From Candidatus Obscuribacterales bacterium (GTDB lineage: Bacteria; Cyanobacteriota; Vampirovibrionia; Obscuribacterales; Obscuribacteraceae), in the NCBI GenBank assembly GCA_031292355.1, contig JARLHI010000040.1, positions 36,090 to 100,089 of the forward strand: DNA of 64,000 bases, in the 5' to 3' direction. Of the stretch, positions 7,067 through 44,408 are shown piece by piece. The notes beneath the pieces were generated by a model, which was given only the letters and a program-made list of their open reading frames with translations, made no database searches and had not been told where the DNA came from. Both the position numbers and the translations under genes were made by a program. How positions within the stretch are numbered: the stretch's first letter is position 1; every line of letters starts with the position of its first letter.

Positions 7067-7219
7067 TAAAACCGGTAACTAGCTCATTTCTTTAAGATCG
7101 TTTATGCAAGAATTTCATTTGCGCCCCAGCTTGAGCTTTATCAATGAAGCCGGGATATGTGAAAGTGCGGCACCGCAAATGGTGTCGGAAAATGCTCTGC
7201 TTAGTCCTTCCGACCTGGC

Positions 7220-15418: not shown

Positions 15419-15982
15419 TTATTTGATGCTGCGTGCTTTGTTTTTAAAGAAATCAATTAGCAGTTTCTGACAATTGTGTTCAAGTACTCCGCCTTTTACT
15501 TCTGGTAATGGATAAATGCGACCTTCGCAATAGAGATTGAAAGCCGAGCCAACCGCACCCGATTTGATATCATACGCGCCAAAAACCAGACGCGGCACAC
15601 GTGCTTGTAACAGTGCCTCTGCACACATGGGACAAGGTTCCAGTGTTGTGTATAAACAAACATCGTCCAGGCGCCAGCGATTCAGATGCGCAGCAGCCTG
15701 GCGAATAGCGATGATTTCTGCGTGCGCGGTTGGATCTTGATTTAATTCGCGTTGATTATGTGCGGAGGCGATAATGACGTTATTTCTAACGATGACACAC
15801 CCCACCGGCACGTCTGTGGCTGAATTTTCGGCTTCTGCAAGAGCCGCTTTCATCCAATTTTGGTCCGGGTTAAGCGAATTTGGGTCAGTCACGGCAAGAT
15901 TGTTCTTTTCGAAAAATGTTTTCGAGAAATTGTCCAGAAATACCTTCATCAGTATATATCCAGAAGTTAAGCGAGAAGCCAA
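15419..15982 (-). CDS. tadA: tRNA-specific adenosine deaminase
   Basis: HAE…PCPMC zinc-deaminase motifs (HAEIIAIRQAA, LEPCPMCAEAL). The true start may be the internal MKAALAEA. Confidence 0.8.
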   Translation of the reverse strand: MASRLTSGYILMKVFLDNFSKTFFEKNNLAVTDPNSLNPDQNWMKAALAEAENSATDVPVGCVIVRNNVIIASAHNQRELNQDPTAHAEIIAIRQAAAHLNRWRLDDVCLYTTLEPCPMCAEALLQARVPRLVFGAYDIKSGAVGSAFNLYCEGRIYPLPEVKGGVLEHNCQKLLIDFFKNKARSIK

Positions 15983-16726: not shown

Positions 16727-17761
16727 ATGCCTAACATCCACATCATCTGGTCTTTCAACGGTGGCGGCACACGCGGCATCATGCAGGCGCGTGCGGTTCA
16801 ACGTCTTGAAGAACGTCTCGGTACCCAACTTGCATCCATCCAGGGCCTCAAGCATTACTTCATTGGCACATCCACCGGAGCCATTGTCGCTCTTGCGCTC
16901 ACCAAGCCCAAAGCCGATGGCACACCTCTTTACCGCGGTGGTGACATCGTCAATCTCTACTACAACGACAGCCCCACCATCTTCCCCAAAAACTTCTGGC
17001 GCCTGCTGCTTTCGCTTGTTGTTAATTGCGGCAGATATCCAGCGTCCGGCATCGAGTCTGTGTTCAAGAAGTATCTGGGTGGCACCACTCTCGGTGAACA
17101 CATGCACAATGTGATCGTTCCGGCTACGCAGACCGGGCCGATTTTCCAACCCTTTTTCTTCAAGAATTACGACAAAGACGACGCCAAGCGTCAAGCCTGG
17201 TTTGTCTGCAGAGCATCAACTGCGGCTCCGCAGTATTTCCCGCCGCTGGCTGATCCTTCGCTTGGACCGGATGGTTGCTTCATCGACGGTGGCATTGAGG
17301 TCAATGCACCGGCGATTAGCGGACTGGCCGAGGCCATGCTTAAGGCCAATGACGATGACGAATTCATCGTTGTCTCCTTCGGTACCGGAATGTATCTGCG
17401 CTCCTTCAGCTACAAGACGATGTCGCGTGCTCCCATCTGGAAGCTCCTCGGCACCGTTCTGGATATGCTGACCGGCGGTCAGGGATACATCGTCAGTTAC
17501 CAGTTGAAGCTGCTGTTGAACAAGCAGATACCGCAGATGTTCCAGCATCGCGACAGTGCCATGCGGCGCTTCTTCAACTTCGACACGATGATTCCGCCGG
17601 ACGTCGATAGCATCGATGATACGAGCAAAGCTACTTTGGATAAGCTTGTCGCGCTCGCTGACGAGATGATCGATGTCGAATTGAAAACCGACTTCGACGC
17701 GCTCTGTGAGATGCTCAAGAAGATCCACGCCGGGACTTTCAGCGTTAGAACTGGGGTCTAG
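16727..17761 (+). CDS. patatin-like phospholipase
   Basis: GGGTRG oxyanion motif, GTSTG (GxSxG) nucleophile elbow and a DGG catalytic Asp motif (FIDGGIEVNAP). The minus-strand ORFs 16502..17194 and 17216..17770 are antisense shadows. Confidence 0.8.
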   Translation: MPNIHIIWSFNGGGTRGIMQARAVQRLEERLGTQLASIQGLKHYFIGTSTGAIVALALTKPKADGTPLYRGGDIVNLYYNDSPTIFPKNFWRLLLSLVVNCGRYPASGIESVFKKYLGGTTLGEHMHNVIVPATQTGPIFQPFFFKNYDKDDAKRQAWFVCRASTAAPQYFPPLADPSLGPDGCFIDGGIEVNAPAISGLAEAMLKANDDDEFIVVSFGTGMYLRSFSYKTMSRAPIWKLLGTVLDMLTGGQGYIVSYQLKLLLNKQIPQMFQHRDSAMRRFFNFDTMIPPDVDSIDDTSKATLDKLVALADEMIDVELKTDFDALCEMLKKIHAGTFSVRTGV

Positions 17762-17932
17762 AAAATGCAAAGTCAGCGACAGTTGTTCTTATCTCATAAG
17801 ACAACTGGAGCTGACTTTGTATAAACGCAGCGCATGGTGCGTATGCGGCCGCTTGAGATAAGTAATCTCTTGAGTCGACGGTAAGAATTCGGCGCGGTGC
17901 GACCCACCATTGGTTAAGAAGGATATTCTGGA

Positions 17933-18148
17933 ATGACTTTAACGAAGACCAAGAACGTTCAGACTGTCGCTCGCGAAGTGGTCGGTAAGCCCATTCGTGA
18001 GGCGGAAGCCTTCATCACCGAGGCTGGTTTTATCAGCCGCGTGGTGATCGTTCATGGGGTCGGTATTCCCGGCGCTCATGAATATAACGATAAACGCGTC
18101 AAGCTTTTCGTCGAGAACGACGTGGTTTACGACACCCGCGTCGGTTGA
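17933..18148 (+). CDS. potato inhibitor I (MEROPS I13, CI-2/eglin-like) family serine protease inhibitor, copy 1
   Basis: 71 aa ending …RVKLFVENDVVYDTRVG, with VGKPIREAEAFI…; matches the CI-2 fold signature (…VGK..E.A…R.DRVRLFVD…PRVG). No signal peptide. Confidence 0.65.
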   Translation: MTLTKTKNVQTVAREVVGKPIREAEAFITEAGFISRVVIVHGVGIPGAHEYNDKRVKLFVENDVVYDTRVG

Positions 18149-18158
18149 GGAGGTGACA

Positions 18159-18485
18159 ATGTTTGGTCGTAATAAAACCGCCACGCGGGCGCCTCCTGTC
18201 GAGTGCAATGGGCGAATTCTCAATAGAGCCCCCTATCTGTTTGGAGGAGGCTACACCTTCATCACCGTCGCTATTCTGGTTGAACTCCCAGATGGCGGCG
18301 AGGAGGTGGTGTTGGAATATTCAAACAGTGCTTCGGTCAAGGCTCTCGCTTTGTGTAAACCCGGGCACAAGGTCAAAGTCTCGTTGGATCGTGAGAGCTC
18401 TGAAGCTCCGTGGAGTATTCAGAATTTTAAGATTGACTACGACGTCAAGGGTGAAAAGCTTGCCCTTGAGAAACTGACCGGCTGA
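18159..18485 (+). CDS. hypothetical protein (108 aa)
   Basis: ATG 10 nt after the I13 stop, preceded by GAGGAGG. ORF track frame 18054..18485, trimmed to MFGRNK. Confidence 0.5.
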   Translation: MFGRNKTATRAPPVECNGRILNRAPYLFGGGYTFITVAILVELPDGGEEVVLEYSNSASVKALALCKPGHKVKVSLDRESSEAPWSIQNFKIDYDVKGEKLALEKLTG

Positions 18486-18501
18486 GATCAGTCAAACGCT
18501 A

Positions 18502-19080
18502 GTGAAACGGGCGATGCACACTTTAGAATTGGCCGTTTCTTTATGCAGTTGGCACCATCTTTTTCCAACTAAACTTCATTGCTTGTTTATAAACTCTTCG
18601 GTCTATACGACTGAGAAAGACTACAAAGTGTCGATTTTCTCTAACACCGCTGGTGCGGCATTGTGCTTTTTGATTGTGTTTGTCATTTGCGTTGCAGCGC
18701 TTGTGGACTGGCGGCAAGCCCGTAAGGAGCGTGCGGAACTTAGACTGTCCGACGATTTGTGGCGCTTCCCAATCTCGTACAGGGCGCTTCTCAAAGATTG
18801 CGGTGCGTACATGACAGATGACGCTGTGCAAAAATATTTAAAGGCAATAGTCAAAGGCTATGAGGATTCGCGAACTCTGCTCCGAATGGGACAGGTTGAT
18901 CGCGCCTCCAAGCGTTTTGTTTATGTGCAGTGGTGCTTTCACAAGGCTCGCGAAAGTGCAGCTGCAGCAGCTTACAACGCTGAAACGGAATCTCTTTTGT
19001 TGGACGAGGCGGATGTAGACTTCGATGAAGTCGCAAGTTCTAACGCGCTTCTGGCTAGACGTCGAGCGGCCAAACAGTAA
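18502..19080 (+). CDS. hypothetical membrane protein
   Basis: One TM helix (AGAALCFLIVFVICVAALV). Start uncertain. Confidence 0.4.
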   Translation: MKRAMHTLELAVSLCSWHHLFPTKLHCLFINSSVYTTEKDYKVSIFSNTAGAALCFLIVFVICVAALVDWRQARKERAELRLSDDLWRFPISYRALLKDCGAYMTDDAVQKYLKAIVKGYEDSRTLLRMGQVDRASKRFVYVQWCFHKARESAAAAAYNAETESLLLDEADVDFDEVASSNALLARRRAAKQ

Positions 19081-19162
19081 TTCAAACGCGCCTTCTTTGG
19101 TTTTGCAAGCGCCATTTGCATGACCAGAGGAGGTTTCACGACCCCAGGTTGGAGTATAAGAG

Positions 19163-19906
19163 ATGCTGTGTACTAAACATCCCACCACGCTGAAAGGCGC
19201 CGCCGAAATCATGGACAGAGCATGCAGTGACTGCGGCAACCTGACCTACTCCGATTGCCAAATTTGCGCGCAGTGCAGCAAGGGCTATGACGAATGTCAG
19301 CGCTGTCGTGCACCGTTGAATAGTTACGTCGACCCACGCAAGCTCGCCGCATTCACGTCGCCTCTCGCTCAAGAGATTCGTAAAAACAAGCTGCTGGCCA
19401 GGGAAACCTTTCTGACCAAAAAGCATGATGCCGAGCGCAACTTTACTGTGTGCACGGCAGAATATAGAAATCTGGTGCGTGAGCAAATTGCACCACATCA
19501 GCTAATCTGCGAAAAAGCCTGCAAGCCCCACAGAGACAAAGTGGCGGCTGTGAGCGAGTCGCTGGGTGGCGAGCTGGCTGACGACAATTTGATGTTCCTG
19601 CAGAAGTCAGTGATTCATCCACGGCTCAAGGAAGCCATCGAAAAATGCGATGCGGCCTGTTTGTCTATCCAAGATAAATATGAGCATGATGTGAAGGGCT
19701 TCTTCGCGGCGTATCGCAAAGCAATAAGACCGGCGAATGCATCGTTGAAAAGGCAGGTAGCCAACGCTCAAGATGAGATGAATCAGCGAATTCGTTCGCT
19801 GGATGATCAGCTGGAAATCTTGCTATATCGTTCGACAAGAATTCGGTACATGGTCCTCGGTGCCATCAGCGATTTCTTTCGAGGCATTCTTCGTCCAAAG
19901 CGTTAG
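19163..19906 (+). CDS. zinc-ribbon (multi-CxxC) N-terminal domain protein with coiled-coil C-terminus
   Basis: CSDCGN…CQICAQCSKGYDECQRC cluster, then a helical region. Followed by a terminator. Confidence 0.55.
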   Translation: MLCTKHPTTLKGAAEIMDRACSDCGNLTYSDCQICAQCSKGYDECQRCRAPLNSYVDPRKLAAFTSPLAQEIRKNKLLARETFLTKKHDAERNFTVCTAEYRNLVREQIAPHQLICEKACKPHRDKVAAVSESLGGELADDNLMFLQKSVIHPRLKEAIEKCDAACLSIQDKYEHDVKGFFAAYRKAIRPANASLKRQVANAQDEMNQRIRSLDDQLEILLYRSTRIRYMVLGAISDFFRGILRPKR

Positions 19907-19947
19907 CCGCGTCAGGTCAACGTAGTGAAATTGAATGAGCAACAGTG

Positions 19948-19990
19948 AAACGGATGATGCGCAATCTGCATCGTCCGTTTTCTTTTATTA
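19948..19990 (+). terminator. rho-independent terminator
   Basis: 13-bp stem AAACGGATGATGC/GCATCGTCCGTTT (one mismatch) with a 7-nt loop, followed by TCTTTTATT. Confidence 0.65.
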
Positions 19991-20117
19991 CCAGTCGCAT
20001 CCCATTCGCTTCACGGAGCAAATTGGCTGAAATTGGCGGATTCCATGTTTTCCTAATAAACCCTCACACCAAAGGTGGTGCATCACCACGCGATACAAAC
20101 AGATAGAAAGACAGAAC

Positions 20118-20546
20118 ATGTATTCCCGCTTGCAACAATTCGAGACCTGTTTTACCACATTCACCGGGCAGGACTTTTTCGTAGTCTTGTTCTACATGGC
20201 GTTGGCATTTGTTGTCGCCGTCATTTTCTTTGTCGCCAATGAGCTCCTGAATTACAACCTTACGAATCTGGTGCCCCATACCGTCGACCAGGCGCGTGAA
20301 CATCACAATAGACTGAAAGATCGCATTGGCTCGGCACGAACAAACCGCAGCCCTGCGTTTGATTACGATTTTGGAGACAAATTGCTCCTAGCGGTCACCT
20401 TGTGTCTCGATGACGCCGACCGAAAGGTGGCACGCGCTCCTTCGCATATCAAAAGCTATAAGGAAGCGTGGAAAGACGTCAAACTGGCGCTGAGACAGCT
20501 TCGGGAAGTCGAGGCACTCTTCGACTACGTACCCAACGAAGATTGA
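20118..20546 (+). CDS. single-pass membrane protein, unknown function
   Basis: One TM helix (FFVVLFYMALAFVVAVIFFV). 16-nt gap to the downstream QueC-like gene. Confidence 0.5.
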   Translation: MYSRLQQFETCFTTFTGQDFFVVLFYMALAFVVAVIFFVANELLNYNLTNLVPHTVDQAREHHNRLKDRIGSARTNRSPAFDYDFGDKLLLAVTLCLDDADRKVARAPSHIKSYKEAWKDVKLALRQLREVEALFDYVPNED

Positions 20547-20562
20547 CAGTGAGGAGCTAATT

Positions 20563-21660
20563 ATGCAGGAATTGTCGATAGTGCTCAAAGAGCGTCGGCT
20601 AGAGATGAAAGGTCCAAAGGGACTGGAAAGTCTTGAGCTCGCGCAGAATTATTCTCTGACGCCGCTTTCGCGCTTTCTGTTTTCTCAGCTCGGCGCGATG
20701 TTTCTTGTTTCACCATATGTTGAGCCTCGAATTCGGACGAATTTTCAAATCTGTCCGGAGATACGCTCGCTCTTTGCTGGCATGTATGAGTCGCTTCAAC
20801 AAGCTCCTCCTCGATTCTTCTCGTCGGACGATCAGCCGTGGCAACTTCCAACTCTCCGTGAACCTTCGCTTCAGCGAGCAGCTGTTGCTCACGGAGGGGG
20901 CAAGGATTCGCTGCGCAACATCTGGTGGGCTGAAGAAGAATACGGAAGAGAAAACGTCCTAGCAGTACATGTAAGTGGGCTGAATCGAGCGGTTGCAAAA
21001 CGCGAGCATGAATATTGCGATCGTCAACAGAAAGAGTTGGGGTTTCACAACTTCAAATTTGTCGAGCTCAAGAACGGCTCGCGAAGCGCCGGACATGAAA
21101 TCATGCGCGCCAGAGACTTCTTTCTCCTGGCGTTAATCATTCCGGATGCACTCGAGTTTGGAGCTTCCACTGTTATCACCGAGGGCTATGCTGAGACAAA
21201 GGAGAATGAGCCGTTTTCTGGAAAGGTTGAGAACATGCGGTTCTTCAATCAGATATTGAGTCGGCTCAAGATTCCATGTCAGGTCGCCTGGCGCGATAGA
21301 GAAGAAGTTTACGCCGTGAAAGATCTGCTCATTCACCGCAGTGGGTGGCTCGATCACGTCGCCAACTGTTTCACCCCGGCAAAATACTTTGGTGTTTATC
21401 GTAGCTGCTGGGAGCGCAACGCACCATCACTTCGACTCTACGATTCACAGTGTGGCTCGTGTCCAAAATGCCGGACGGTAAATCTGGCGAGGATTCTTTA
21501 CGACAAGCGCACCACTGATAATTTGGCATTGTCAGATGCGCAGTATTTTCTCGCCAACACAAAAAGCTGGATGGGCAGGAATCGGGTCAAATTCGCCGAT
21601 TTCATTGACGGTAGTTTTGGCGAAGAATTTGCCAGAGCCTGTCAACGGTATTCTCGTTAG
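20563..21660 (+). CDS. QueC-like PP-loop ATP pyrophosphatase (adenine nucleotide alpha-hydrolase superfamily) with ~110-aa N-terminal extension
   Basis: PP-loop HGGGKDS (SGGxDS-like). Blocks align to QueC: IMRARDFFLLALI ~ VPGRNILFLTLA, ITEGYAETKENEPFSGK ~ ITGVCETDFSGYPDCR, and C-terminal CGSCPKCRTVNLARIL ~ CGHCAACNLRANGL. No queD/queE/queF nearby. Confidence 0.65.
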   Translation: MQELSIVLKERRLEMKGPKGLESLELAQNYSLTPLSRFLFSQLGAMFLVSPYVEPRIRTNFQICPEIRSLFAGMYESLQQAPPRFFSSDDQPWQLPTLREPSLQRAAVAHGGGKDSLRNIWWAEEEYGRENVLAVHVSGLNRAVAKREHEYCDRQQKELGFHNFKFVELKNGSRSAGHEIMRARDFFLLALIIPDALEFGASTVITEGYAETKENEPFSGKVENMRFFNQILSRLKIPCQVAWRDREEVYAVKDLLIHRSGWLDHVANCFTPAKYFGVYRSCWERNAPSLRLYDSQCGSCPKCRTVNLARILYDKRTTDNLALSDAQYFLANTKSWMGRNRVKFADFIDGSFGEEFARACQRYSR

Positions 21661-21748
21661 CTCAACGGTTTTTTAGATAGAACCTGGCTGCAGTCATCGG
21701 ATTGATGCAGACCAGGTTCCATTGCAGCATGTTTTTGTGGAGACTAAC

Positions 21749-22405
21749 ATGACCCAAAGCAAGCAACCAGCAAAGAATAAAGTGTCTTACGAACATCTTC
21801 GCGAAGTCGGCGACCGTTTAATGGCGAGTCTCAGACCGCATTTCGAAAAGCTTTATCGCGAGCACAATCCTCTCAACGTGACGTTTCTCCATCCGGGTAG
21901 CCTCATGTGCAAACAGTTGCTCTCGAAGGAAGAGCCGTGGATTACTCACGTGCACAAGGGATACTATTTGGTCCGTGCAAATTCGCTATTTGTGGTTCTC
22001 GATGAAGCGCTGCCCGAAGCTGTTTTGCCGAAGGCTTTCGAGGGCATTCCTGTGGATTATGTCGTCTATCATGCTCCGCAAAAGACTGCTTGTTATCGCG
22101 ACAAAAATATGAGAACGCCCGAGTGGAAAGCCGCCATCACCGAAGCGACAGCGCTCTGGTCGCGGCTTTGCGAAGAATTTTACTCTGCTCATGGTGACGG
22201 TGGTTCATGCGTATTGGGTGCTGGAATTGCGGTAAGGTATTTGCCTCCGCGGTGCCGTAACACAACGCTGGAAATTGTTATCCATGACTATCAAGGGTTT
22301 CGCAGCCAATCTTGCGCAGTGCACGAGGCGACCAAAATGGAAGTAATCATTTTTCTCGCAAGCAAGGGCATCGAGGCCGTTTGGGATGCAGGTCATATGG
22401 GCTGA
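21749..22405 (+). CDS. hypothetical protein (218 aa), third gene of the QueC-like operon
   Basis: ORF 21722..22405 re-started at MTQSK after GGAG. No recognisable motif. Confidence 0.5.
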   Translation: MTQSKQPAKNKVSYEHLREVGDRLMASLRPHFEKLYREHNPLNVTFLHPGSLMCKQLLSKEEPWITHVHKGYYLVRANSLFVVLDEALPEAVLPKAFEGIPVDYVVYHAPQKTACYRDKNMRTPEWKAAITEATALWSRLCEEFYSAHGDGGSCVLGAGIAVRYLPPRCRNTTLEIVIHDYQGFRSQSCAVHEATKMEVIIFLASKGIEAVWDAGHMG

Positions 22406-22489
22406 CATCTGCAAAGGTGTTGGAAAGAGCGATCTAAACGAGGGTGTAAGCGGTATTTCCAAAATGCCGCTCACATTTTTTAGAATTGA

Positions 22490-22501
22490 CTTTGCCTAAA
22501 A
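22490..22501 (+). repeat. conserved intergenic 12-mer, site 3
   Basis: Exact 12-mer. Context GAATTGACTTTGCCTAAAAAGAAG. Confidence 0.6.
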
Positions 22502-22965
22502 AGAAGTGAGTTTCACCTAACGTTTGCATCGCTAGTATCTGCTAGGCAGTCCACTATTTGTTCATCAGCGCATACCGGTTTACCTTCGCCAGTCTGATTT
22601 GCTGACCACTTCTTCCATTATCTTGAACTTCTAGGCTGTCGCTTAGCCTTATCTGTGCAGGCTTCTAGGGCTTATGTGTCGATAGCCGCGAGTTCCGTAG
22701 GAGCCGCCTATGAGTTGCGATGTCATCGTCATGACGAGCAGAATGAAGTCACACATCCAATTAAAACTAATTTGCCTGAAAGCTAACTCCATCTTCTAAT
22801 TATCTCGATCATCTAAATCAATCTAGTACTCGTAATGTGAGTGCAGGCTCGCTCGCTAGAGATCTGCTTGGGCATTAGAGACTCAATAATCTCCGCGCTT
22901 TTTTGGAACACAAGGCGCTGAGTGATGAAGACAACCTCGACCACAAACCTTTATGGAGACAAAGG

Positions 22966-23187
22966 ATGACTGATATGAATGATACGACCAACGAAGTGCA
23001 GGCGGTGGCCAGCGAAGCGATCGGTAAGACGCTTCGCGAAGCCGATGCTCTAATCTCTGCTGCTGGATTCGTGAGCAATGTGGCTTTCAATCATGGGAAG
23101 GCCATTCCCGGCATTCTCAACTTCAGAGGCGGGCGCATACAACTTCACGTCAGAGACGACATAGTCTTCGACGCAAAGGTCGGCTGA
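22966..23187 (+). CDS. potato inhibitor I (I13) family serine protease inhibitor, copy 2
   Basis: 73 aa, IGKTLREADALI…GGRIQLHVRDDIVFDAKVG. About 50% identical to copy 1, same family signature. ATG after AAAGGA. Confidence 0.65.
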   Translation: MTDMNDTTNEVQAVASEAIGKTLREADALISAAGFVSNVAFNHGKAIPGILNFRGGRIQLHVRDDIVFDAKVG

Positions 23188-23226
23188 CTGGCGAATAGCT
23201 CGAAAAGCATAAGAAAAGGAACGGTT

Positions 23227-23793
23227 ATGAAAAATGGAAATAGCAAATCCCAGTTAAGATCGCTTAATCGCGCCGCTCATCGCGTGTTTGGCGATTTGTT
23301 CTCTATCGGCGAACCACTTCCGATCAATTCTATCAGCGGCGACGAGCTTTCCAATTGCGATCCAACTGATGGATTGGCGAAGTTTGTTCAAAACTTCCAA
23401 ATGGTCATTTGTCCGGTGCTCCGACACGAACACCTTATGTGCACCTTCACAATGTTGAAGGAAGGAAGTTCCTGGGGACTACACTCGTTCACTTATGGAA
23501 CGTCGACTGAAAGTCAAGTTTTGTTCAGTCAGGTTGCCGAGTGCAAAAAAACTATAGGGCACACTGATTTTCGATTAATCGATTTCAACAGTCTAAATCG
23601 TCAGTGCTTGAGTTATAACACTCCCGCTGGTCTGAGACTTTATTGTCTTCGTTACTGGCCGAACGATCCCGACCTAATTCGGCGCAGCAGAGATCCTATC
23701 GTTTTACTGAACTTTTTCAAAGAAGAGTGGGCGAGAAAGAAGAAGATGATCGACGAGAACACTTCTTCTGATCTCGTTGGCGGCTCTAGCTAG
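23227..23793 (+). CDS. hypothetical protein (188 aa)
   Basis: ORF 40 nt after I13 copy 2. No recognisable domain. Confidence 0.5.
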   Translation: MKNGNSKSQLRSLNRAAHRVFGDLFSIGEPLPINSISGDELSNCDPTDGLAKFVQNFQMVICPVLRHEHLMCTFTMLKEGSSWGLHSFTYGTSTESQVLFSQVAECKKTIGHTDFRLIDFNSLNRQCLSYNTPAGLRLYCLRYWPNDPDLIRRSRDPIVLLNFFKEEWARKKKMIDENTSSDLVGGSS

Positions 23794-23935
23794 TTAGAAC
23801 AAACAAGATGTGTTGCACTGGCTTCGCTCGTGCAGCACATCTTAGACTAGTTCTTTTCAATTTTGAGGTTGCGACTTTGCTTTAAATGATATTTTAAGCA
23901 ATAATTCGTATGAAAAATGAGTATCCGAGCCGGTG

Positions 23936-23957
23936 CGAGAGACCCACCGGTCTCTCG
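23936..23957. terminator. bidirectional hairpin between convergent genes
   Basis: Perfect 9-bp stem CGAGAGACC/GGTCTCTCG with a CACC loop, 21 nt downstream of the minus-strand gene ending at 23981. T-richness is only moderate on both sides. Confidence 0.5.
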
Positions 23958-23980
23958 TTCCAGACTGGCTTTCTCTGAGT

Positions 23981-24367
23981 TCAGTACAGCACTGATGCTG
24001 CGCGCTCACCACCTCCGCGGCTGACGATTTCGTCTTCGAGCTTGTAGTGTTCGCTGAGAACGACGAAGCCAGTCAAAACCAAAGCGACGGTCCAGAACGA
24101 AACAACGTCCGTCCCTGACCAACTGTCCCCGGCAATGAAGCGCATCGAGAACATTACGGCGAGCATACTCACGAATGACGTTCCGAGAAGGAATTGCGAT
24201 CTTTCGAGTCGCTTCCAGGGCATGCGATCGATTTTGCGCATTGCGTCGCTCGCCTGCAGCACTTGCAAATGCGCCGCATTCGTGCGACGACTGAGGTTGT
24301 TATACAAAGCGAGTAATGGAACGCTAAAGAGCGCCACTATGACAAGAACAACAGTGTGAGGCACCAT
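23981..24367 (-). CDS. small three-helix membrane protein, last gene of the SPFH operon
   Basis: Three predicted TM helices. Directly downstream of the two SPFH genes. No NfeD-like OB region is evident. Confidence 0.5.
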   Translation of the reverse strand: MVPHTVVLVIVALFSVPLLALYNNLSRRTNAAHLQVLQASDAMRKIDRMPWKRLERSQFLLGTSFVSMLAVMFSMRFIAGDSWSGTDVVSFWTVALVLTGFVVLSEHYKLEDEIVSRGGGERAASVLY

Positions 24368-24472
24368 CGGTGTTTCCTTTTTTTATGGTTTGTCGAATCC
24401 TTGCTGTGAAGAAGAAAGGCAGTAGTACAGTCAACTTCGACTGTACCACTGCCTTTGTGGAGCAAAGATGCG

Positions 24473-25426
24473 TTACTTGCTGTCCGAACTGGCCAGCAGT
24501 TGACCGACAGCAAAGTCACTGGCGGTGCTCGAATTCTGAGGCACCATCAGCACCTTGGTCGCGGCGACGCCGATCTTGAGCAGCGTATCCATGTCGAGTT
24601 GCTTGTTCAGAATGACGAGGATCTCACGGCGAAGTGAGCGCTTTTCCTCGGCAGTCGCTTTGCCCAGACCGAGCGCTGTGCCGAGCGACTTGATGGAGTT
24701 GGCATAGGCTCTGCCGATTGCGATACGCTGCAGACCCACGCCTTCACCGCCAAGTTTCATCTTCTGCTTGTTGGCAGTCGCTCGGGCAACGGTCTGAATC
24801 TTGTTCGTCTCGCCCTGAGCCTCTGCCGTCAGCTTCTTCTGAGTCTGCTCGTAGACCGCATCACGTGCGTCTTTGACAGTCGTCGGCAGGATGATATTGT
24901 TCAGATTGACGCTGAGAATATCGTATCCATTGTCTTCGAGGAAGTGCTCGAGTTCCTCTCTGACCGCCAGAACGATGCCGGTGGTGTCGGTGAACACCTC
25001 TTCGAGGTCCATTCTGGGCGCCTTGGCGAATGCCACCTTGCCGACATGGGACTCGATTTGCTTGAGGGGCTCGCGCAGATTGAACATGGCTTCGCGTTCG
25101 CGACCCGTCTTGACCCGAATCGCGATGGTCAGTTCGAGTACGACGGGAACCTTGTCCTTTGTGGTCGTGTTGACCTTGATCACGTGCTGCTGACTTTGCA
25201 GCGACCAAGGCGCCGTCAGCGTCTCGAAGATCGGCAGTTTCAGGCAGGGACCGGAACCGACGATCTTGATGAATCTCCCCTGACGAAGCTTCGCCCGGAA
25301 GTGCTTGGGCGGAGTGATTCGAATGCTGCCGATCAGTGTGCATATGAAGAGGATCGCCAGGACGGCTGTGAGACCGAGAGTGACGTAGAAACCGATGTTC
25401 GATGAATCTTCCATTGTAGACTCCAA
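24473..25426 (-). CDS. SPFH/Band-7 (stomatin/flotillin-like) membrane protein, paralog B
   Basis: N-terminal TM, then an SPFH core (…TKDKVPVVLELTIAIRV…, NGYDILSVNLNNIILP…). About 45% identical to the upstream paralog. Confidence 0.75.
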   Translation of the reverse strand: MESTMEDSSNIGFYVTLGLTAVLAILFICTLIGSIRITPPKHFRAKLRQGRFIKIVGSGPCLKLPIFETLTAPWSLQSQQHVIKVNTTTKDKVPVVLELTIAIRVKTGREREAMFNLREPLKQIESHVGKVAFAKAPRMDLEEVFTDTTGIVLAVREELEHFLEDNGYDILSVNLNNIILPTTVKDARDAVYEQTQKKLTAEAQGETNKIQTVARATANKQKMKLGGEGVGLQRIAIGRAYANSIKSLGTALGLGKATAEEKRSLRREILVILNKQLDMDTLLKIGVAATKVLMVPQNSSTASDFAVGQLLASSDSK

Positions 25427-25498: not shown

Positions 25499-26458
25499 CT
25501 AGGCTGCGAGAACCCCCTTGTCGGTGACACCGAGGTTGTGCTGGAACACCAGAACCGTGCCGGTCGAAGTGCCGACCTTCACGAGAGTCGCGAGCTCGAG
25601 CTGCCGATTGAGCAACTTGGTGATCTCGTCGTGCAGTTCCTTCTTCTCTTCCTCGGGAGCGTCTTCAAGTTCGAGAGCTTCGCTCAGTTCGTTGATGGTG
25701 ACGACAGAAGCATCTGCAATCGCCATACGCTCTTCGCCGACGCCTTCACCGTCGAGCTGCCGTTCGATCTTGTCGGCTTCGGCCGCTGCGAGAACCAGAA
25801 CGGCTGCTGTTTCACCGGCAGCCTTTGCGGCGATCTGCAGCTGGGTGTTCACGTAGACCGCATCGCGCGACTTCTGAACCGAATCCGGCAGGGTGATGCC
25901 GTTGAGGTTCACCGAAAGAATGTCGTAGCCGTTGTCGTTCAGGAATTTCGAGATATCCGTCGCGATAGCGGCGATGACCTTGCCAGAGTCGCCGTAGAGG
26001 GTGTCGAGATCCATGGTGGGCACGAGCGCGAGTGCGACTTTGCCAACATGGGACTCGATCTGCGGAACGGGATCGGCCAGGTTGAACATCGCTTGTTCTT
26101 CTTTGCCGCGCTGAACCCGGATGGCGACATTGAGCAGAAGCGAAACCGCGACCTTGTCCTTGGTTGTCGTGGTGACGGTGATCGCATACTGGACGCTCTG
26201 CAGCGAGAAGGGCTCCGAGAGCGAGTGCAGAATCGGCACGACGATGCACCAGCCCTCATGGACGATCTTGACGAAGTTGCCCATTCGCATCTTAGCGCGG
26301 AACGTCATGGTCTGCGTCTTGCGAACGAATATGGCGATGAACAAGGTGGCGGCGACGAGCACCGTACCGAGTAGAAGTATGGCTGTCTGAAAAAGTTGCA
26401 TGAGAAGACTCTCCTTAAGGTTGGTTGATTTCTCTTCTGTGCTCTTTTTATTTGGCAT
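25499..26458 (-). CDS. SPFH/Band-7 membrane protein, paralog A
   Basis: Same architecture as paralog B (…TKDKVAVSLLLNVAIRV…, NGYDILSVNLNGITLP…). Confidence 0.75.
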   Translation of the reverse strand: MPNKKSTEEKSTNLKESLLMQLFQTAILLLGTVLVAATLFIAIFVRKTQTMTFRAKMRMGNFVKIVHEGWCIVVPILHSLSEPFSLQSVQYAITVTTTTKDKVAVSLLLNVAIRVQRGKEEQAMFNLADPVPQIESHVGKVALALVPTMDLDTLYGDSGKVIAAIATDISKFLNDNGYDILSVNLNGITLPDSVQKSRDAVYVNTQLQIAAKAAGETAAVLVLAAAEADKIERQLDGEGVGEERMAIADASVVTINELSEALELEDAPEEEKKELHDEITKLLNRQLELATLVKVGTSTGTVLVFQHNLGVTDKGVLAA

Positions 26459-28955: not shown

Positions 28956-30052
28956 AGCTCCTGGAGCAGCTGCAGTGTTCGGCGTCCGACTGCAATACCA
29001 CAACTATGCTTCTGACCGTGCACGCTGAGGCTCCAGAGCATAATCAGTGCCGCAGAGAGTTTCATGTAATTGCTGAAGACACGATTGTCCCGAGCCGAGG
29101 GAGTGAAGTAGCAGTCAGGCAAGCACACTGGTTCATGACCGACCTCTGCAATTTGATCCACATATCCTTGCAGAAATTTGCAAGACAAATTGGTATCGAA
29201 TGGCGCGGGCTCTTGTGAGGACAAATTGCCTGCGTACATGAGCAAGCCATATGCTAGGTCCATCAGAGGATTATCCAGACGTGTGTAATCCCAATCGATC
29301 AGCCCACAGGCATTACCATTGCGGTAGAGAATATTGCCTGGTTGAAAATCCCCATGTACAACCACTTCTTCGGCTTTAAGAGCTTTAGCGTGGATTCCGT
29401 CTTCGATTTCGGCAGCAGCCTTGCGCAAAATGGCCAGCAGTCTCTGGTGCTCCAGGCTCTCGAGACCGATGCGCGCGAGATACTTTGACCCTGCATCTGC
29501 GCACGCATCAAGCAGAAGTTGCGGCACGCTAGATGCTATCGACGTTTCTATTTCACAGCCGAGGTCAAGCAATCTGGTTTTGACGGATCGTGTCGCTGCG
29601 TGGGTTCTGGCAAGCAGGTTTCCAGCCGAATAACTGTGCGAGTCTGTCCAGGGTGGTGGAGATTGAAGCCAATCGAAAGATGGTGCGTTTGCTTCGAAAG
29701 TGGTGACACTCCAGACGGTCTTTTCCGCTCCTGAAAATCCGGTTGCAATGTGAATGTCTTTGCCAGAGGCAGTGAGTCGACGCGCGGGAACGACTATGTG
29801 GTGGTCATTTTTGGCCAGTAAGTTTTCGACCGCGGTCATCGCCGAAGATTGTCTATGAATGGAGAACGGAGTGGCCTTTAAAACAAAATCCTGGATCGTT
29901 CCATTTTGATTGCAGCGTGCTTGTACGACGATGGATGTTCCGTCGTTTTTGAGAAATCTAAGAGCCGCGCTTTCATTACTTTCGGACTCTAAGGTCAATC
30001 CGAATGCTTCGAGGCAGGGCATGCACAATATTTGAAGGGCGTTTGAGGACAT
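28952..30052 (-). CDS. aminoglycoside/choline/homoserine-kinase-type phosphotransferase family protein
   Basis: HGDFQPGNILY catalytic-loop and GLIDWDY metal-binding motifs of the APH kinase-like fold. Confidence 0.7.
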   Translation of the reverse strand: MSSNALQILCMPCLEAFGLTLESESNESAALRFLKNDGTSIVVQARCNQNGTIQDFVLKATPFSIHRQSSAMTAVENLLAKNDHHIVVPARRLTASGKDIHIATGFSGAEKTVWSVTTFEANAPSFDWLQSPPPWTDSHSYSAGNLLARTHAATRSVKTRLLDLGCEIETSIASSVPQLLLDACADAGSKYLARIGLESLEHQRLLAILRKAAAEIEDGIHAKALKAEEVVVHGDFQPGNILYRNGNACGLIDWDYTRLDNPLMDLAYGLLMYAGNLSSQEPAPFDTNLSCKFLQGYVDQIAEVGHEPVCLPDCYFTPSARDNRVFSNYMKLSAALIMLWSLSVHGQKHSCGIAVGRRTLQLLQEL

Positions 30053-30175
30053 CGAGTAGATCTTTCTTGGATGGTGTCAGTTTAACGCAAATTGAATGCC
30101 CGAAATGACAAAAAGAGAGAGTGCTCGCGCGAGATTCGGAACGCTCTCTCATTCTGTTACTTAATTAGTTGTGGG

Positions 30176-30742
30176 TTATTCGGAGGTGTCTTCGAAGGCT
30201 CTTCCGCCGGTGAGTTCCGAGCGGATCACTTTGAGAACGTCTTCGAAATCTGTCGTCGCATAGACGGCGCCGTACAGATTTCGCAATTCTTTGTCGCGGA
30301 AATCTTGCGGCGTTGGCTCTCCTTGCCCGAAGAGCTGATTGGGAAAATCTCCGTTGAGGACAGTATAGAGCTGGGCGTGAGTCGCTTCGCTGCCGTCACT
30401 GCTGGCGGTGCCCGACAATTGATCGGCTCTCAGTACAAACTGGATTTTTCTCGTGGTAGCCTTGACGCCCAAGCTAGCCAGCCAAGCAAACAGCAAAGAA
30501 GCTCGGCTGGGCACTTCGAGTGTTACATCAATGCGCCAGCTGTCGTCCTCGCTGATAGTGGTGCCGACTGAAGTTTGGATGTATGACGTCGATAGGCCAA
30601 ATATGCTTCCACCTGTTGGAACGAGCTTAATCAGTTGAGAAAGCGCATGATTCGCTGCGCCCGTCGATATTGGGGCTCCCCGATTCTCGAAGGCTTCGTC
30701 AGCGGTCGCGTAAGTTGTTTCATTAGCCGCGATGTCAGTCAC
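30176..30742 (-). CDS. hypothetical protein (188 aa), downstream of the large flotillin-like gene
   Basis: Same strand and probably co-transcribed. No motif recognised. Confidence 0.45.
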   Translation of the reverse strand: MTDIAANETTYATADEAFENRGAPISTGAANHALSQLIKLVPTGGSIFGLSTSYIQTSVGTTISEDDSWRIDVTLEVPSRASLLFAWLASLGVKATTRKIQFVLRADQLSGTASSDGSEATHAQLYTVLNGDFPNQLFGQGEPTPQDFRDKELRNLYGAVYATTDFEDVLKVIRSELTGGRAFEDTSE

Positions 30743-30913
30743 TGTGGTACCTCATGTTTGAGTTTGCAGCGCGTCGCTCAATTCGAGAGACCCGACGAGG
30801 GACCCGAAATGAGCAAAAAGGGAGAAAAAAGGTGAGACATCAAAAGATGCCCCACCTCCTTCCATTACTTATTCAACTCTGCGATACCATGTGCATGGTA
30901 CTGCGGAGTGGAA

Positions 30914-33088
30914 TTACACTACGTCGGTCTTCGGGGCGCTGGAAGCGTCCGTAGAAGCCGGCGCAGCACTGGCGTCAGCATCAGGAGCCGGAGCGACTGT
31001 GGGCTTTGCGGCAACTGCGGCGGGAGCACCACCGTCGATACCAGCGAGCTTGGGCAGCAACATGGCGCCGATGAGGTCGGCCATTGAACCACCGCCATTG
31101 CCACCACCGGTGGAAATTTGCGGCACGATAGGCACCCTGATCTCGACGAGCGCGCGCGTCTGTTCGAGACGAGCAACGTTGTCTTGACCGAGTGCGTCGG
31201 ACTTCTTGCGATAGGCTTCGGCTTCGGCAGTACCAGTCGCGAGAACGACGGCCGCTTCGGCTTCACCCTTGAGCTGAATTGCTTTCGCTGTTGCAACGCC
31301 GACTGCTTCGATGCGGGCAGCTTCACCAGAAGCCCGTTCCCTGGCAGCAAGAGCGTCGTTCTTGGCGATGAGGATGCCGGCTTCAGCCTTCCGGATGGAT
31401 GACTGCTGATCGGCTTCAGCCTTGGTGTTCTCGAGCGTGACGCGCGCCACTTCGGCGAGCTGCTGCGAGGTGTACATCTCCTTGCGTTGATCGGCAAGGT
31501 TTTTGGCCGACTGCGTATCCATCAGGTCCTTGGGCAGGTTGATGTTGGTGATCAAAACGGCAATCACCTCGATACGATAGTCACGCAGCGCGTTCTGCAC
31601 CTCGACGAGGGCACTGGCTGCTTCTTCGGCACGCTTCTTCATGTAGTTCAGCGCCGGCGACTTGGAGACCTGCGAGCGGAAAATGCCGTCCACCTGTGGG
31701 TGAATGACGTTTGCTTCCAGGGCATCGATGTCACCGAGCTTGGAGATGACGTAAGGGACGTTCTCCGGCAGCACGCGGTAGTTGACCCGAACTTCGACGG
31801 TCATCTCGAAGCCGTCATTGGAGACGACCATGAAGGGGTCGAAGTAGTTCGTCTTTTGGTCTTCCTTGGCATTGGCCCACTCGACGGTACGAGCAGACGT
31901 CGGCCATGGAATGACTTTTTCCGCGTAGGGGTTGATAGCATACTTGGCCGGCTGCAGCACTTCGCTCTGCAGACCGCGTTCGCCTCGATTGACGACATGA
32001 AGTGCGCGACCACCGCTGTTAAGCCGGTGTTCGGCGGTGTCGGTGGCCGACCCGTCGATTGTCGTGGTAGATGGTTCTGCCTTGCTGGTGGGCTCGCTGC
32101 CTGTGTAGGCAATGCGGGCGGCCACGAAGCCAGGAAGCACCTCGTACAGTTCCTTCATTTCGATTTCGAAAGCATCGGTGTTGATGTAGTATCGACCGGC
32201 ACCAAGCACGCGATCTTGTGGACCAGCAAAGCCGCCGAGGGTAACAAACTGCTGCGCGTCGGAGAAGATGTTGTCGGTCGCGGCAGGAGTGGTGGCACAT
32301 ACTTCGCCAGCAGGCAGCGGTCGGCCGATCTTGGCGATCACGATACCGACCTTGCCCTTCGGCACATCGGTGGCGGGCATCGTCTTGACGTCGAAGACTG
32401 CGGTGTTGATGTTGTAGACACCGGGCGGCAGAATCTCGATCTGTCGACCTTGCTGTCCGCCATTCTTGATGAAAGTGGCAGCATCCTGGAAGCGGTCGTG
32501 ACCTTCGACCTTGTCGCCGAGAATCTGACCGGCAGACGTCCGTAAGGGCTTACCGTCCTTGGCGTAAACGAGACCGACCTGACCTTCGGGAATGACAGTC
32601 CGATCGATGATGTCGATCTTGAACTGCAACGGATGGATGAACTTGGCGCCAGCCGTCAGCAGCTTGAGCTGCGTGCCGACGATGCCGCCGTTTTCCATGA
32701 AGCCGTTGACGTCCTGGAAGTTGTCGTGATGATCGCCAGCGGCGTCATCGGCGAAGTTGCGACCAGCCGGAAGCGGCTTGCCATCGAGCGCCGTGACGAC
32801 AGCCAGTTTTCCCTCGGGCACGATGGTGATGTCTTTCATCTCCTTGATGCGCCGATTGGGATAGGCTACGAAGTGCCATCCCTGCTTGTAGTAAGTGCGT
32901 AGCACGCCGATTTCGTTGTCGCGAGCGAGGATGCGACCGGTTTCGATGCTCTTGCCCTTGAGGGTGTTTTCGAGCAATGCGAGCTTGCCGCTGGGAACCT
33001 TGCGGACCCAACGCGTAGCGAGCCAGAGAAGCGCTGCCAGAACGACTACACCGATTCCGGTGTAGATGCCGAGATTAACGAAGTTCAT
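30914..33088 (-). CDS. large flotillin-like SPFH protein with three N-terminal ~65-aa repeats and an Ala/Glu-rich coiled-coil
   Basis: N-terminal TM. Three repeats of VPEGK.GVV.A.DGKPL…H..FQD…F…GG…. SPFH core (MTVEVRVNYRV…, YRIEVIAVLITNINLPKDL). Flotillin-like EA-repeat coiled-coil. Pro/Ala-rich tail. Confidence 0.7.
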   Translation of the reverse strand: MNFVNLGIYTGIGVVVLAALLWLATRWVRKVPSGKLALLENTLKGKSIETGRILARDNEIGVLRTYYKQGWHFVAYPNRRIKEMKDITIVPEGKLAVVTALDGKPLPAGRNFADDAAGDHHDNFQDVNGFMENGGIVGTQLKLLTAGAKFIHPLQFKIDIIDRTVIPEGQVGLVYAKDGKPLRTSAGQILGDKVEGHDRFQDAATFIKNGGQQGRQIEILPPGVYNINTAVFDVKTMPATDVPKGKVGIVIAKIGRPLPAGEVCATTPAATDNIFSDAQQFVTLGGFAGPQDRVLGAGRYYINTDAFEIEMKELYEVLPGFVAARIAYTGSEPTSKAEPSTTTIDGSATDTAEHRLNSGGRALHVVNRGERGLQSEVLQPAKYAINPYAEKVIPWPTSARTVEWANAKEDQKTNYFDPFMVVSNDGFEMTVEVRVNYRVLPENVPYVISKLGDIDALEANVIHPQVDGIFRSQVSKSPALNYMKKRAEEAASALVEVQNALRDYRIEVIAVLITNINLPKDLMDTQSAKNLADQRKEMYTSQQLAEVARVTLENTKAEADQQSSIRKAEAGILIAKNDALAARERASGEAARIEAVGVATAKAIQLKGEAEAAVVLATGTAEAEAYRKKSDALGQDNVARLEQTRALVEIRVPIVPQISTGGGNGGGSMADLIGAMLLPKLAGIDGGAPAAVAAKPTVAPAPDADASAAPASTDASSAPKTDVV

Positions 33089-33122
33089 AGCTTGTCCTTG
33101 AGATTGAAGTTACTTGGAAGAG

Positions 33123-33153
33123 TCTCTTTAGCTGCACGTCGCAGCTAAAGAGA
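33123..33153. repeat. perfect 13-bp inverted repeat (hairpin) between pncA and the flotillin-like gene
   Basis: TCTCTTTAGCTGC-ACGTC-GCAGCTAAAGAGA. No strong T-tract follows. Possibly a terminator for pncBA or an operator. Confidence 0.45.
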
Positions 33154-33196
33154 CAGGGTTGGAATAGTCCGTTTACGTTTTACACAGTTGGAACGC

Positions 33197-33853
33197 TTAC
33201 AGAATGTCCGCCGCGGTGATCAACGTGACACCATGGGCGGTGAGATCCGCGTCGTCGGCAGCGGCCATTTCAGGTGCGAGCATCGAGCAGGCATCGGTGA
33301 CAAGATATGTCTCGAAGCCTTCGTCGACCGCGTCTTTGGCGGTATAGCTGGCACAGAAAGGACGTGTGATGCCGACCACAACGACGGTCGTTACGCCCTT
33401 ACTGCGCAGCCAATCGGCGAGGTCTGTTTTCTGACCTTTCTTGTTGTCTCGGAAACCCGAGTAGCTGTCGACCTGTTTGTCGGTCCCCTTGCGGACGACG
33501 TGATCGCATCGCGAGCGGTCGAAACTCGGATGGAATTCGGCACCAGGCGTATTCGCGCGTCCGTGGACGGTCCAGAGCATCTGCTGCACGCCGTGCAGGT
33601 CGATGATCTCGCCGGGGTTTTTACCCAAGTGTTGTTCGGCGAAACTTTCGTGATCCGGCGGATGGTGGTCTGCCGTATCGACGACGAGATTGAACTTCGG
33701 TGACGCCGAAAGCTTGTTGACGTTGTGCACAATGGTTGGCGCTGTGGCGACGGGCAGCTCGCCTGTGCCAGGAATGTTTCTGTCTTCCGGAAAGAAGCAG
33801 TTCTGCCCATCCACGCGGATGAGAGCAGTGGTGCCATTGAACGAGATTGTCAT
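33197..33853 (-). CDS. pncA: nicotinamidase / isochorismatase-family hydrolase
   Basis: ALIRVDGQNCF (DxQxDF-type) motif, VVVVGIT…C catalytic Cys region. Adjacent to pncB. Confidence 0.75.
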   Translation of the reverse strand: MTISFNGTTALIRVDGQNCFFPEDRNIPGTGELPVATAPTIVHNVNKLSASPKFNLVVDTADHHPPDHESFAEQHLGKNPGEIIDLHGVQQMLWTVHGRANTPGAEFHPSFDRSRCDHVVRKGTDKQVDSYSGFRDNKKGQKTDLADWLRSKGVTTVVVVGITRPFCASYTAKDAVDEGFETYLVTDACSMLAPEMAAADDADLTAHGVTLITAADIL

Positions 33854-34002
33854 ATGACCTCTTGCTGGTTGATGATGACTGAGACAATGGTGGCAGAAAC
33901 TGGCACCATTGTCCCCGGAAATCTGTCATGTAAGTTCGCCCGGGCAGCTGAGTGCGCGAGCGAGCCGACATGCTCAGATGGTTTTGAGTGCGATCAGGCG
34001 AC

Positions 34003-35202: not shown

Positions 35203-35463
35203 GTTTTGCTCTTTCAGGTTGGTGGTGGGTGCTTGCGTTTGCCTGGCTGCTGTTTGCGCAACTGGGCGGCGAAATCACTGCGAACTAAGCCTGCCGTCTT
35301 TACAGATGCGGAAGTGCAGGAGTGGTGGCTAAAAGGTTTGACTTCGTAGTGAGTGCTATGAAAATTCCGGTGGTTGAGTGTTGAAATACGATTGACCCTA
35401 CCGTGCCTACCGGAGTGATATCAAGGTGGTCGTGGCGCCGTTCACTGGTTTTGTCATTAGTAC

Positions 35464-35519
35464 CTTTAAAGAGAACCTCTTGGCAAATTTGCCGCTTTTG
35501 TAGAACTCTTTAAAGCCGT
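35464..35519. promoter_or_regulatory. nested palindrome upstream of pncB (candidate operator)
   Basis: 10-bp inverted repeat CTTTAAAGAG…CTCTTTAAAG enclosing the perfect 12-bp palindrome GGCAAATTTGCC. About 260 bp upstream of the pncB start on the minus strand. Confidence 0.35.
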
Positions 35520-38230: not shown

Positions 38231-38254
38231 TTTCGGTTAGAGGGACTCTGGCGC

Positions 38255-44399: not shown

Positions 44400-44408
44400 T
44401 GATGCACC

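Follow-up and report, generated by a model that had tools for sequence, protein, structure and literature searches.

A 64,000-nt stretch of DNA from a Candidatus Obscuribacterales bacterium (contig JARLHI010000040.1, positions 36,090 to 100,089; hereafter the window) carries three consecutive open reading frames (ORFs) on the same strand, here called A (20118-20546, +; 142 aa), B (20563-21660, +; 365 aa) and C (21749-22405, +; 218 aa), the second of which codes for a protein resembling QueC. The question raised by this locus is whether the three genes work together as a distinct module anchored at the membrane, as the original prediction proposed, or whether B acts by itself, and what kind of enzyme B could be. 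Our results favour B by itself. We consider it probable that B is a stand-alone, horizontally acquired adenylate-forming enzyme of the QueC superfamily and that A and C are unrelated, fast-turnover genes of a variable islet, which share the terminator-bounded unit of B in this genome.

Gene B and its relation to QueC

The protein coded by B is a QueC-superfamily ATP pyrophosphatase of the PP-loop type, with an SGGxDS-type loop and the predicted Rossmann-like alpha/beta/alpha fold that is common to QueC, LarE, TilS and GMP synthase, and it is the sole PP-loop ORF in the 64 kb. Its QueC-like core lies between an N-terminal domain and a helical extension of ~60 residues at the C-terminus, which makes three parts, and all members of the B family carry both the N-terminal domain and the C-terminal extension. 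The two strings from which the resemblance to QueC had been noticed, HGGGKDS and CGSCPKC, were both located. The former is the PP-loop (aa 110-116; 20890-20910, +). Its consensus across the family reads S-[AG]-G-K-D-S, in which K114 and D115 never vary and S116 hardly does; in the window protein a His precedes the loop, which reads G-G-G-K-D-S, Gly replacing the first Ser. The latter spans aa 297-303 (21451-21471) and belongs to a set of four invariant Cys residues, C269 and C297-x2-C300-x2-C303 in the motif QCGSCxKC (21367-21471, +). This Cys4 layout is of the QueC (zinc) type, yet the first Cys lies 27 residues ahead of CxxCxxC, compared with 8 in QueC. R184 and E207 are likewise invariant across the family.

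An N-terminal extension of ~110 aa had been described for B, and it is real, but the model predicts that residues 1-100 (20563-20862, +) are an independently folding and highly conserved domain and not a loose extension. The predicted topology is beta-beta-beta-alpha-beta-alpha-beta, RNase-H-like or ASKHA-like, and the residues E22, F40, M46, L70, M74, Y75 and P83 are invariant in the family. A nuclease role was considered for this domain in view of its RNase-H-like topology and was rejected, since no catalytic acidic triad of the DDE type is conserved, and for the same reason it is treated here as a non-catalytic docking domain.

Taken by its sequence alone, B would pass for a generic PP-loop protein, and it is the predicted structure that settles its placement with QueC. 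The Pfam model for QueC (PF06508) gives B 14.7 bits against a cut-off of 22, and matches in the PP-loop region only, while the NCBIfam model TIGR00364 is touched by only 5 of 26 family members (E >= 0.034). The profile of the B family found GMP synthase, TtuA and QueC among PDB sequences at E about 1e-3, and family-wide scans matched Diphthamide synthase, ATP_bind_3, QueC, LarE, TilS and others, every match being confined to the same initial ~60 residues of the core. The relatives that do pass the Pfam threshold for QueC are P0066 and the fusion proteins P0137 and P0143. The AlphaFold2 model of B, built from 26 homologues, reached a predicted local distance difference test score (pLDDT) of 93.9 and a predicted template modelling score (pTM) of 0.91, and a Foldseek search with this model ranked two QueC crystal structures on top (3bl5 at E 7e-6 and target TM-score 0.70; the QueC structures used for comparison have the PDB ids 3bl5 and 2pg3). 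Alignment of the family with Escherichia coli QueC by hhalign gave a probability of 86.8% over residues 104-304 of B and 2-204 of QueC. Within this span the PP-loop, the FSG motif and CxxCxxC pair up, R184 falls opposite the essential R99, and E148 opposite E42. The QueC-like core that had been proposed for B is borne out by the Foldseek ranking and by this alignment; the block-by-block correspondence that had been claimed with it holds by profile and structure methods only, as the plain sequence match stays below the threshold.

The canonical signature of QueC (PF06508 cluster 1) was defined by mutagenesis in 2026 as SGGxDS, YxQxHxxE, VPxRN, YPDC and C(x)8CxxCxxC, with Y35, R99 and Y131 essential and an aromatic residue needed at position 131 (PMC13329287). 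In the hhalign alignment YxQxHxxE is not kept in B, where V137, G139 and N141 stand opposite Y35, Q37 and H39 and the final Glu (E148) is the only survivor; across the family the position of Y35 is Val or Ile, with Gly for Q37 and Asn for H39. The Arg of the VPxRN region is kept as the invariant R184, in a motif that reads M-R-[SA]-R-D. YPDC is absent, being K-V-E-N in the window protein and variable across the family, and the FSG that precedes it is conserved. Other differences from QueC are a length of 365 aa against ~222 aa, owing to the extra N-terminal domain and the C-terminal extension, a rare and patchy distribution, and the lack of a queD/queE context. No queD, queE, queF or tgt gene was found among 30 ORFs of the window scanned with Pfam, in agreement with the original prediction, and the Pfam annotations at the 8 loci that have a gene table, like the 10 neighbours scanned in the genome loci, showed no que gene either. 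Because the QueC thresholds are missed and YxQxHxxE and YPDC are absent, B appears to be a divergent QueC-like PP-loop protein and not bona fide QueC, and a role outside queuosine synthesis, as had been anticipated, is supported by its context.

Distribution of the B family

A word-indexed search of 5.8 billion cluster representatives returned 37 proteins of the B family. One of them, identical to B (100%), comes from a Candidatus Obscuribacterales metagenome-assembled genome (MAG), where it is annotated as hypothetical, and the best identities beyond the Obscuribacterales lineage are 48-50%. An exhaustive profile search of 1.84 billion representatives gave 250 proteins at E <= 1e-3 and 50 at E <= 1e-30, and in the Genome Taxonomy Database (GTDB), with one genome for each of 185,579 species, the family was present at 15 loci. 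Twelve of these are titled Patescibacteria or other members of the candidate phyla radiation (CPR; Paceibacteria, WWE3, Saccharibacteria, Sungbacteria); of the other three, two come from Woesearchaeota and one bears the label Pseudomonadales. One further locus with a family member carries an archaeal L15e gene. The B family is therefore very small and unnamed, and it is found mainly in Patescibacteria (CPR) and Woesearchaeota (DPANN). To judge from this distribution, the Obscuribacterales lineage most likely acquired B horizontally. An origin of B from a mobile element was considered and rejected, as 50,697 phage records and 72,556 plasmids gave no tblastn match to B and a profile-guided scan of IMG/VR gave none either.

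Beyond the family proper lies a second tier of relatives of ~350 aa, which have the motifs FTGGKDS, NLNR..E, SCY and CGxCxKC in common. Some of them match the PADLOC model 'QueC' at about 1e-7 and one, P0081 (24% identity), is found on a phage-like contig. The tier also includes distant relatives that occur as fusions, P0147 (579 aa), P0137 (905 aa) and P0143 (987 aa), one of which bears an N-terminal ParB_N domain. P0137 has a long region C-terminal to its QueC-like domain with a weak match to type II methyltransferase models (PADLOC E 0.003), and P0143 is a similarly long fusion whose C-terminal region gave no match. These fusions hint at nucleic-acid-directed roles in the wider clade. In a Saccharibacteria MAG (L022), two short ORFs on the opposite strand downstream of the B homologue (7134-7595, -, and 7907-8290, -) cluster with the B family by BLASTP and may be fragments of a second, decayed copy.

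Genes A and C in a variable islet

In this genome A, B and C look like one transcription unit, with terminator-like hairpins on both sides. The spacers are 16 nt between A and B and 88 nt between B and C, the latter counted from an ATG at 21749 that has GGAG 8 nt upstream; as a TTG ORF, C would run from 21722 to 22405, and the ATG is the likelier start. At the 5' boundary, 136 nt 5' of A, an intrinsic-terminator-like hairpin (19947-19981, +), with a 15-bp stem and a T-run (the stem is followed by TTTTCTTTTATT), ends the upstream gene 19163-19906. This hairpin is kept in the relatives L027 and L029, and in the relative L009 a 40-bp match (90%) to window positions 19944-19982 ends ~50 nt 5' of B. 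The 3' boundary is a terminator-like hairpin 44 nt past the stop codon of C (22449-22471, +), with a 10-bp stem followed by CACATTTTTT. The B-C spacer holds another stable hairpin (21676-21723, +; minimum free energy -27.6 kcal/mol, z -2.94), equalled in folding by 1 of 200 shuffles and with no T-run directly after it. It sits where homology to the relatives L009 and L010 stops (the alignments end at 21642 and 21627), and it may be an insulating or processing element. The three ORFs and the terminator ahead of them are thus present as had been described. No tRNA or Rfam family was found in the window.

The two neighbours of B were examined for any lasting connection with it. A has one predicted transmembrane helix, a single hydrophobic segment at aa 21-39 with a Kyte-Doolittle mean of 3.02, which fits its earlier description as a single-pass membrane protein, and C begins with a polar N-terminus (MTQSKQPAKNK) whose tail is probably flexible. 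Neither A nor C matches Pfam, PADLOC or NCBIfam, and each has 3 homologues among the 5.8 billion cluster representatives, those of A at 67-68% identity. By tblastn neither was found in the ten loci collected first, among them L009 (B 84% identical) and L010 (B 82% identical), and B stands without A and C in relatives at 82-84% identity and at 20 loci of CPR or DPANN. A single relative, the very close L029, has the triad again, with B 97%, C 94% and A 67% identical. The synonymous divergence (dS) in this comparison is discordant as well, 0.21 against 0.60 with A the more diverged gene, and the discordant identities and dS point to separate recombination histories of the genes. A is found without B in L027 and L028, where B, C and two further genes are deleted, and in L030 a C-like gene (46% identity) lies amid small unrelated ORFs, again with no B. 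Accordingly, A is a lineage-specific near-orphan and no conserved partner of B, and C is a soluble near-orphan linked to B only in its closest relative.

The same picture emerges from the wider neighbourhoods. Across 23 loci no neighbour family recurs within 4.5 kb of B, save for synteny among near-identical genomes, and the neighbours are varied: GNAT, elongation factor P, TspO, uracil-DNA glycosylase, M50 protease, nucleotidyltransferase, a haem-oxygenase-like protein and others. Genes on the opposite strand often flank B; at four of the 15 genome loci (L013, L017, L018, L019) they do so on either side. A DoxX-clan membrane protein adjoins B in L001-L003, L007 and L008, and a DoxX/MauE partner was considered for this reason and rejected, as the protein is absent elsewhere and unrelated to A. 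The conservation of the triad, by which the proposed module was to be judged, is thus limited to L029; the distinct membrane-anchored module does not hold up, and annotations should not pass the apparent three-gene operon on as a system.

B lies in a hypervariable region between a patatin gene and two SPFH genes. When window positions 17800-24400 were compared with the Obscuribacterales-like relatives L009, L010, L027, L028 and L029, a presence/absence mosaic of small orphans was observed (o143, o192, o247, A, B, C, pi94 and o188), of which each relative holds its own subset, so that the region acts like a recombination hot spot or variable islet. The islet of L009 consists of patatin, a 71-aa inhibitor-like gene, an o143-like ORF and B; that of L010 of patatin, the 71-aa gene, o192, o247 and B; and that of L029 of o247, A, B and C. 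L027 and L028 have patatin through o247, A and the first 20 codons of B, followed by the SPFH genes. The 3.2-kb segment missing from these two (20622-23867, by blastn and tblastn breakpoints) covers B from codon 21 on, C, a 94-aa inhibitor-like gene and a 188-aa ORF, and the alignment with L027 departs after codon ~20 of B. Because the first 20 codons of B survive there, the missing segment reflects a deletion in the L027/L028 lineage.

Despite this turnover all three genes are real coding sequences. The ratio of nonsynonymous to synonymous divergence (dN/dS) is 0.05-0.11 for B, 0.09 for patatin, 0.17 for C and 0.23-0.40 for A, the last of which marks A as coding. B is under strong purifying selection, and its start, GGAG-N8-ATG, is kept in 5 of 5 relatives. 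The replacement of Ser by Gly in the PP-loop had suggested that B could be a pseudoenzyme or in decay, but its dN/dS argues against this.

The patatin-like phospholipase gene (16727-17761, +), the conserved anchor of the islet, is strongly constrained and matches phospholipase-effector models of PADLOC (E 3.5e-42). Neither a CD-NTase nor any other known defence partner was found near it, and a known defence system at the locus was rejected, as PADLOC matches were obtained for the patatin gene only. The 71-aa gene (17933-18148, +) and the 94-aa gene (22903-23187, +) code for paralogous small proteins, the first of which passes the Pfam model for potato inhibitor I, a serine-protease inhibitor (25.4 bits, cut-off 24.5); it adjoins patatin in L009 and L010 and is cut to a 40-aa remnant in L027. 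After each paralogue comes an unrelated ORF without assignment (18054-18485 and 23227-23793). The gene upstream of A (19163-19906, +) codes for a 247-aa protein without assignment, whose Cys-rich N-terminus, CSDCGNLTYSDCQICAQCSKGYDECQRC, may be a zinc ribbon; it is kept in L010, L027 and L029 at 58-77% identity, and in L027 and L029 the terminator hairpin after it is conserved as well. Past the islet lie two tandem SPFH/Band-7 paralogues (24473-25426, -, and 25499-26458, -), ~48% identical to each other's L027 orthologues, and 5 kb further on a third, larger Band-7 protein of 724 aa (30914-33088, -). Immediately upstream of the islet, on the opposite strand, a TadA-like (MafB19/dCMP_cyt_deam) deaminase (15419-15982, -) is syntenic in L027 along with adenylate kinase and a TPR protein. 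The Pfam scan of the window ORFs found the TadA-like deaminase, adenylate kinase, patatin, SPFH proteins, NAD-salvage genes and others. Base composition is heterogeneous along the window, rising from about 46-50% G+C to 54-60% in 30000-48000 and 56000-62000, and the islet of B, at about 49-50%, shows no contrast with its flanks.

Proposed function and comparison with known QueC-type enzymes

The chemistry proposed here for B is drawn by analogy from the fold and from the characterised QueC-type enzymes QueC, Cap9 and QatC. B combines a predicted QueC-type PP-loop fold with an intact K-D-S, conserved Arg and Glu residues at QueC catalytic positions and the Cys4 site, and it is found alone. In the proposed mechanism the S/G-x-G-K-D-S loop would bind ATP-Mg, B would adenylate the carboxylate of its substrate with release of pyrophosphate, and an amine, either ammonia or an amino group of a macromolecule, would displace AMP to leave an amide. 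C269, C297, C300 and C303 would hold a structural zinc beside the pocket, as in QueC, Cap9 and QatC. The residues with which QueC and Cap9 contact 7-carboxy-7-deazaguanine, namely Y35 of YxQxHxxE and the YPDC motif, are replaced in B, which has gained its N-terminal domain, predicted to be rigidly docked, and its C-terminal helices, a layout that parallels QatC. Given this replacement of the deazaguanine-contacting motifs, and given that the core has an extra domain on either side as it does in QatC, B probably does not handle its acyl substrate as QueC does. Its acceptor or substrate may be a macromolecule encoded elsewhere, or may be presented by one.

Several other explanations of the locus have to be weighed against a stand-alone enzyme. 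A dedicated module in which A anchors B and C at the membrane, possibly for defence or for modification of a metabolite, would account for the common strand, the short spacers, the two flanking hairpins, the coding character of all three genes, the recurrence of the triad in L029 and the joint loss of B and C in L027, and the patatin gene with its phospholipase-effector match adjoins the islet. We nevertheless regard it as improbable, given that A and C are missing beside B in L009, L010 and all CPR/DPANN loci, that A and a C-like gene are each found without B, that A departs so far from B and C in L029, that a stable hairpin parts B from C exactly where homology to the other relatives ends, and that PADLOC matches none of the three. 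A better case, though still a doubtful one, can be made for B acting like QatC or Cap9, that is, joining 7-carboxy-7-deazaguanine, or a base carboxylate like it, to a protein at its N-terminal amine as part of an anti-phage or conflict system; the target would be C itself or would be encoded elsewhere. The three-part layout resembles that of QatC, whose extensions bind QatB (PMC13639016), the distribution is rare, patchy and crosses domains, distant relatives match the PADLOC 'QueC' model with one of them on a phage-like contig, the islet that holds B is variable and adjoins a patatin gene, and C starts with a polar and probably flexible tail. Against it stand the lack of a PADLOC match of B to QatC or Cap9, the absence of QatA, QatB, QatD, CD-NTase or Cap10 nearby and of a conserved partner at any of the 23 loci, and the location of B among housekeeping genes in CPR genomes. 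Moreover, C has Thr at position 2 and not the essential Gly (PMC13279940), C is not conserved with B, and the deazaguanine-contacting motifs that Cap9 keeps are missing in B.

That B could be the housekeeping QueC of the organism in a divergent form, converting 7-carboxy-7-deazaguanine to preQ0, is suggested by the automatic annotation of the 84%-identical P0002 as 7-cyano-7-deazaguanine synthase by the Joint Genome Institute (JGI), by QueC being the best structural match and by the retention of the zinc-type Cys cluster and of R184 at the place of the essential R99. This is very improbable, however, in view of the missed Pfam and NCBIfam cut-offs, the loss of Y35 and Y131 (PMC13329287) together with YxQxHxxE and YPDC, the extra domain, the lack of linkage to queD or queE, the deletion of the gene in a close relative and the rarity of the family, seen in 15 of 185,579 species genomes. 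In annotation, the name given to P0002 should not be used for B and its homologues. It is also unlikely that B transfers sulfur in the Fe-S-dependent manner of TtuA, NcsA or non-sacrificial LarE, with a [4Fe-4S] cluster bound by its cysteines delivering sulfur to an adenylated substrate, since the matches of B to LarE, TtuA and others cover the PP-loop region only, its Cys cluster aligns with the zinc site of QueC in order and position, and four Cys ligands would leave no open Fe site, whereas such thiolases use three Cys (PMC13329287). The preferred reading, a stand-alone adenylate-forming enzyme acquired horizontally, has points against it too. Terminator-like hairpins do bound A, B and C on both sides, the spacers are 16 and 88 nt, and the three genes may be co-transcribed and share a lineage-specific functional link, especially B with C, which were inherited together in L029 and deleted together in L027. 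The first Ser of the PP-loop is nearly invariant in the family and is Gly in the window protein, which could affect the handling of ATP. B shows no compositional anomaly, the argument for horizontal transfer coming entirely from distribution, and the chemistry suggested for the family would follow from its membership of the superfamily.

QueC-fold enzymes have recently been found to do more than make preQ0, as Cap9 and QatC do in immunity, and B stands for a branch of the QueC scaffold that is uncharacterised and very small, is centred on CPR and DPANN and has a new N-terminal domain. The 2026 survey of the QueC family was defined by membership of Pfam PF06508, and because B fails this membership its branch lies outside the map of that survey. 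If characterised, the B family would extend the repertoire of the scaffold by a new domain architecture in which the ATP and zinc elements are kept and the deazaguanine-binding motifs are not, and it would add a rare enzyme common to CPR bacteria and DPANN archaea. A more specific proposal, which we put forward only speculatively and hold to be rather unlikely in its full form, is that B belongs to a fourth functional branch beside QueC, QatC and Cap9 that has so far gone unrecognised: a self-sufficient single-gene ligase whose RNase-H-like N-terminal domain and C-terminal helices dock a protein or nucleic acid to which a carboxylate-bearing base or metabolite is attached, exchanged among CPR, DPANN and Melainabacteria as an accessory or conflict function and having phage-borne cousins.

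QatC is one of the known systems closest to B. In anti-phage immunity Cap9 and QatC modify the N-termini of proteins with a deazaguanine (PMC13329287, PMC13639016, PMC13279940), and the published description of QatC gives an N-terminal extension, a QueC-like core with SxGxDS and a Cys4-zinc site, and a C-terminal helical extension, in the same order as in the model of B. In both proteins the first Cys spacer is lengthened, to 19 residues in QatC and 27 in B, and the canonical substrate motifs of QueC are remodelled (PMC13329287). The N- and C-terminal extensions of QatC clamp its protein substrate QatB, and the former consists of four parallel strands and three helices over ~147 aa (PMC13639016), in contrast to the ~100-aa beta-meander-alpha-beta-alpha-beta domain predicted for B. 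QatC was not among the PDB structure matches of B, PADLOC gave no QatC or Cap9 profile match for B at E <= 0.1, and Pfam and PADLOC showed no QatA (KAP ATPase), QatB, QatD (TatD nuclease), CD-NTase or Cap10 near B in the window, so that its partners do differ from those of QatABCD and of type IV CBASS (cyclic oligonucleotide-based anti-phage signalling system), as had been noted. A QatC-type substrate requires Gly2 in a flexible N-terminal tail that is inserted into the active site (PMC13279940); C has Thr2 and A has Tyr2, and B has no conserved partner.

Cap9 of type IV CBASS (PDB 9nto) is a minimal protein of ~185 aa that keeps the catalytic signature of QueC and is encoded beside a CD-NTase and the TGT-like Cap10, whereas B is twice as long and has neither the signature nor such neighbours. 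From LarE B differs in that TIGR00268 gives 15.1 bits against a cut-off of 150, in the PP-loop region only, and in its QueC-type Cys pattern, and no LarB or LarC was found near B. MurL, an ATP-dependent epimerase (NF041275), was considered after a weak match to aa 273-309 of B (19.2 bits against 700) and rejected, since 2 of 26 members match over 37 residues and the similarity is local to the Cys motif. With LarE, TilS, ThiI, TtuA, NcsA and GMP synthase the likeness is limited to the nucleotide-binding half; their Cys patterns differ from that of B, which lacks tRNA-binding domains.

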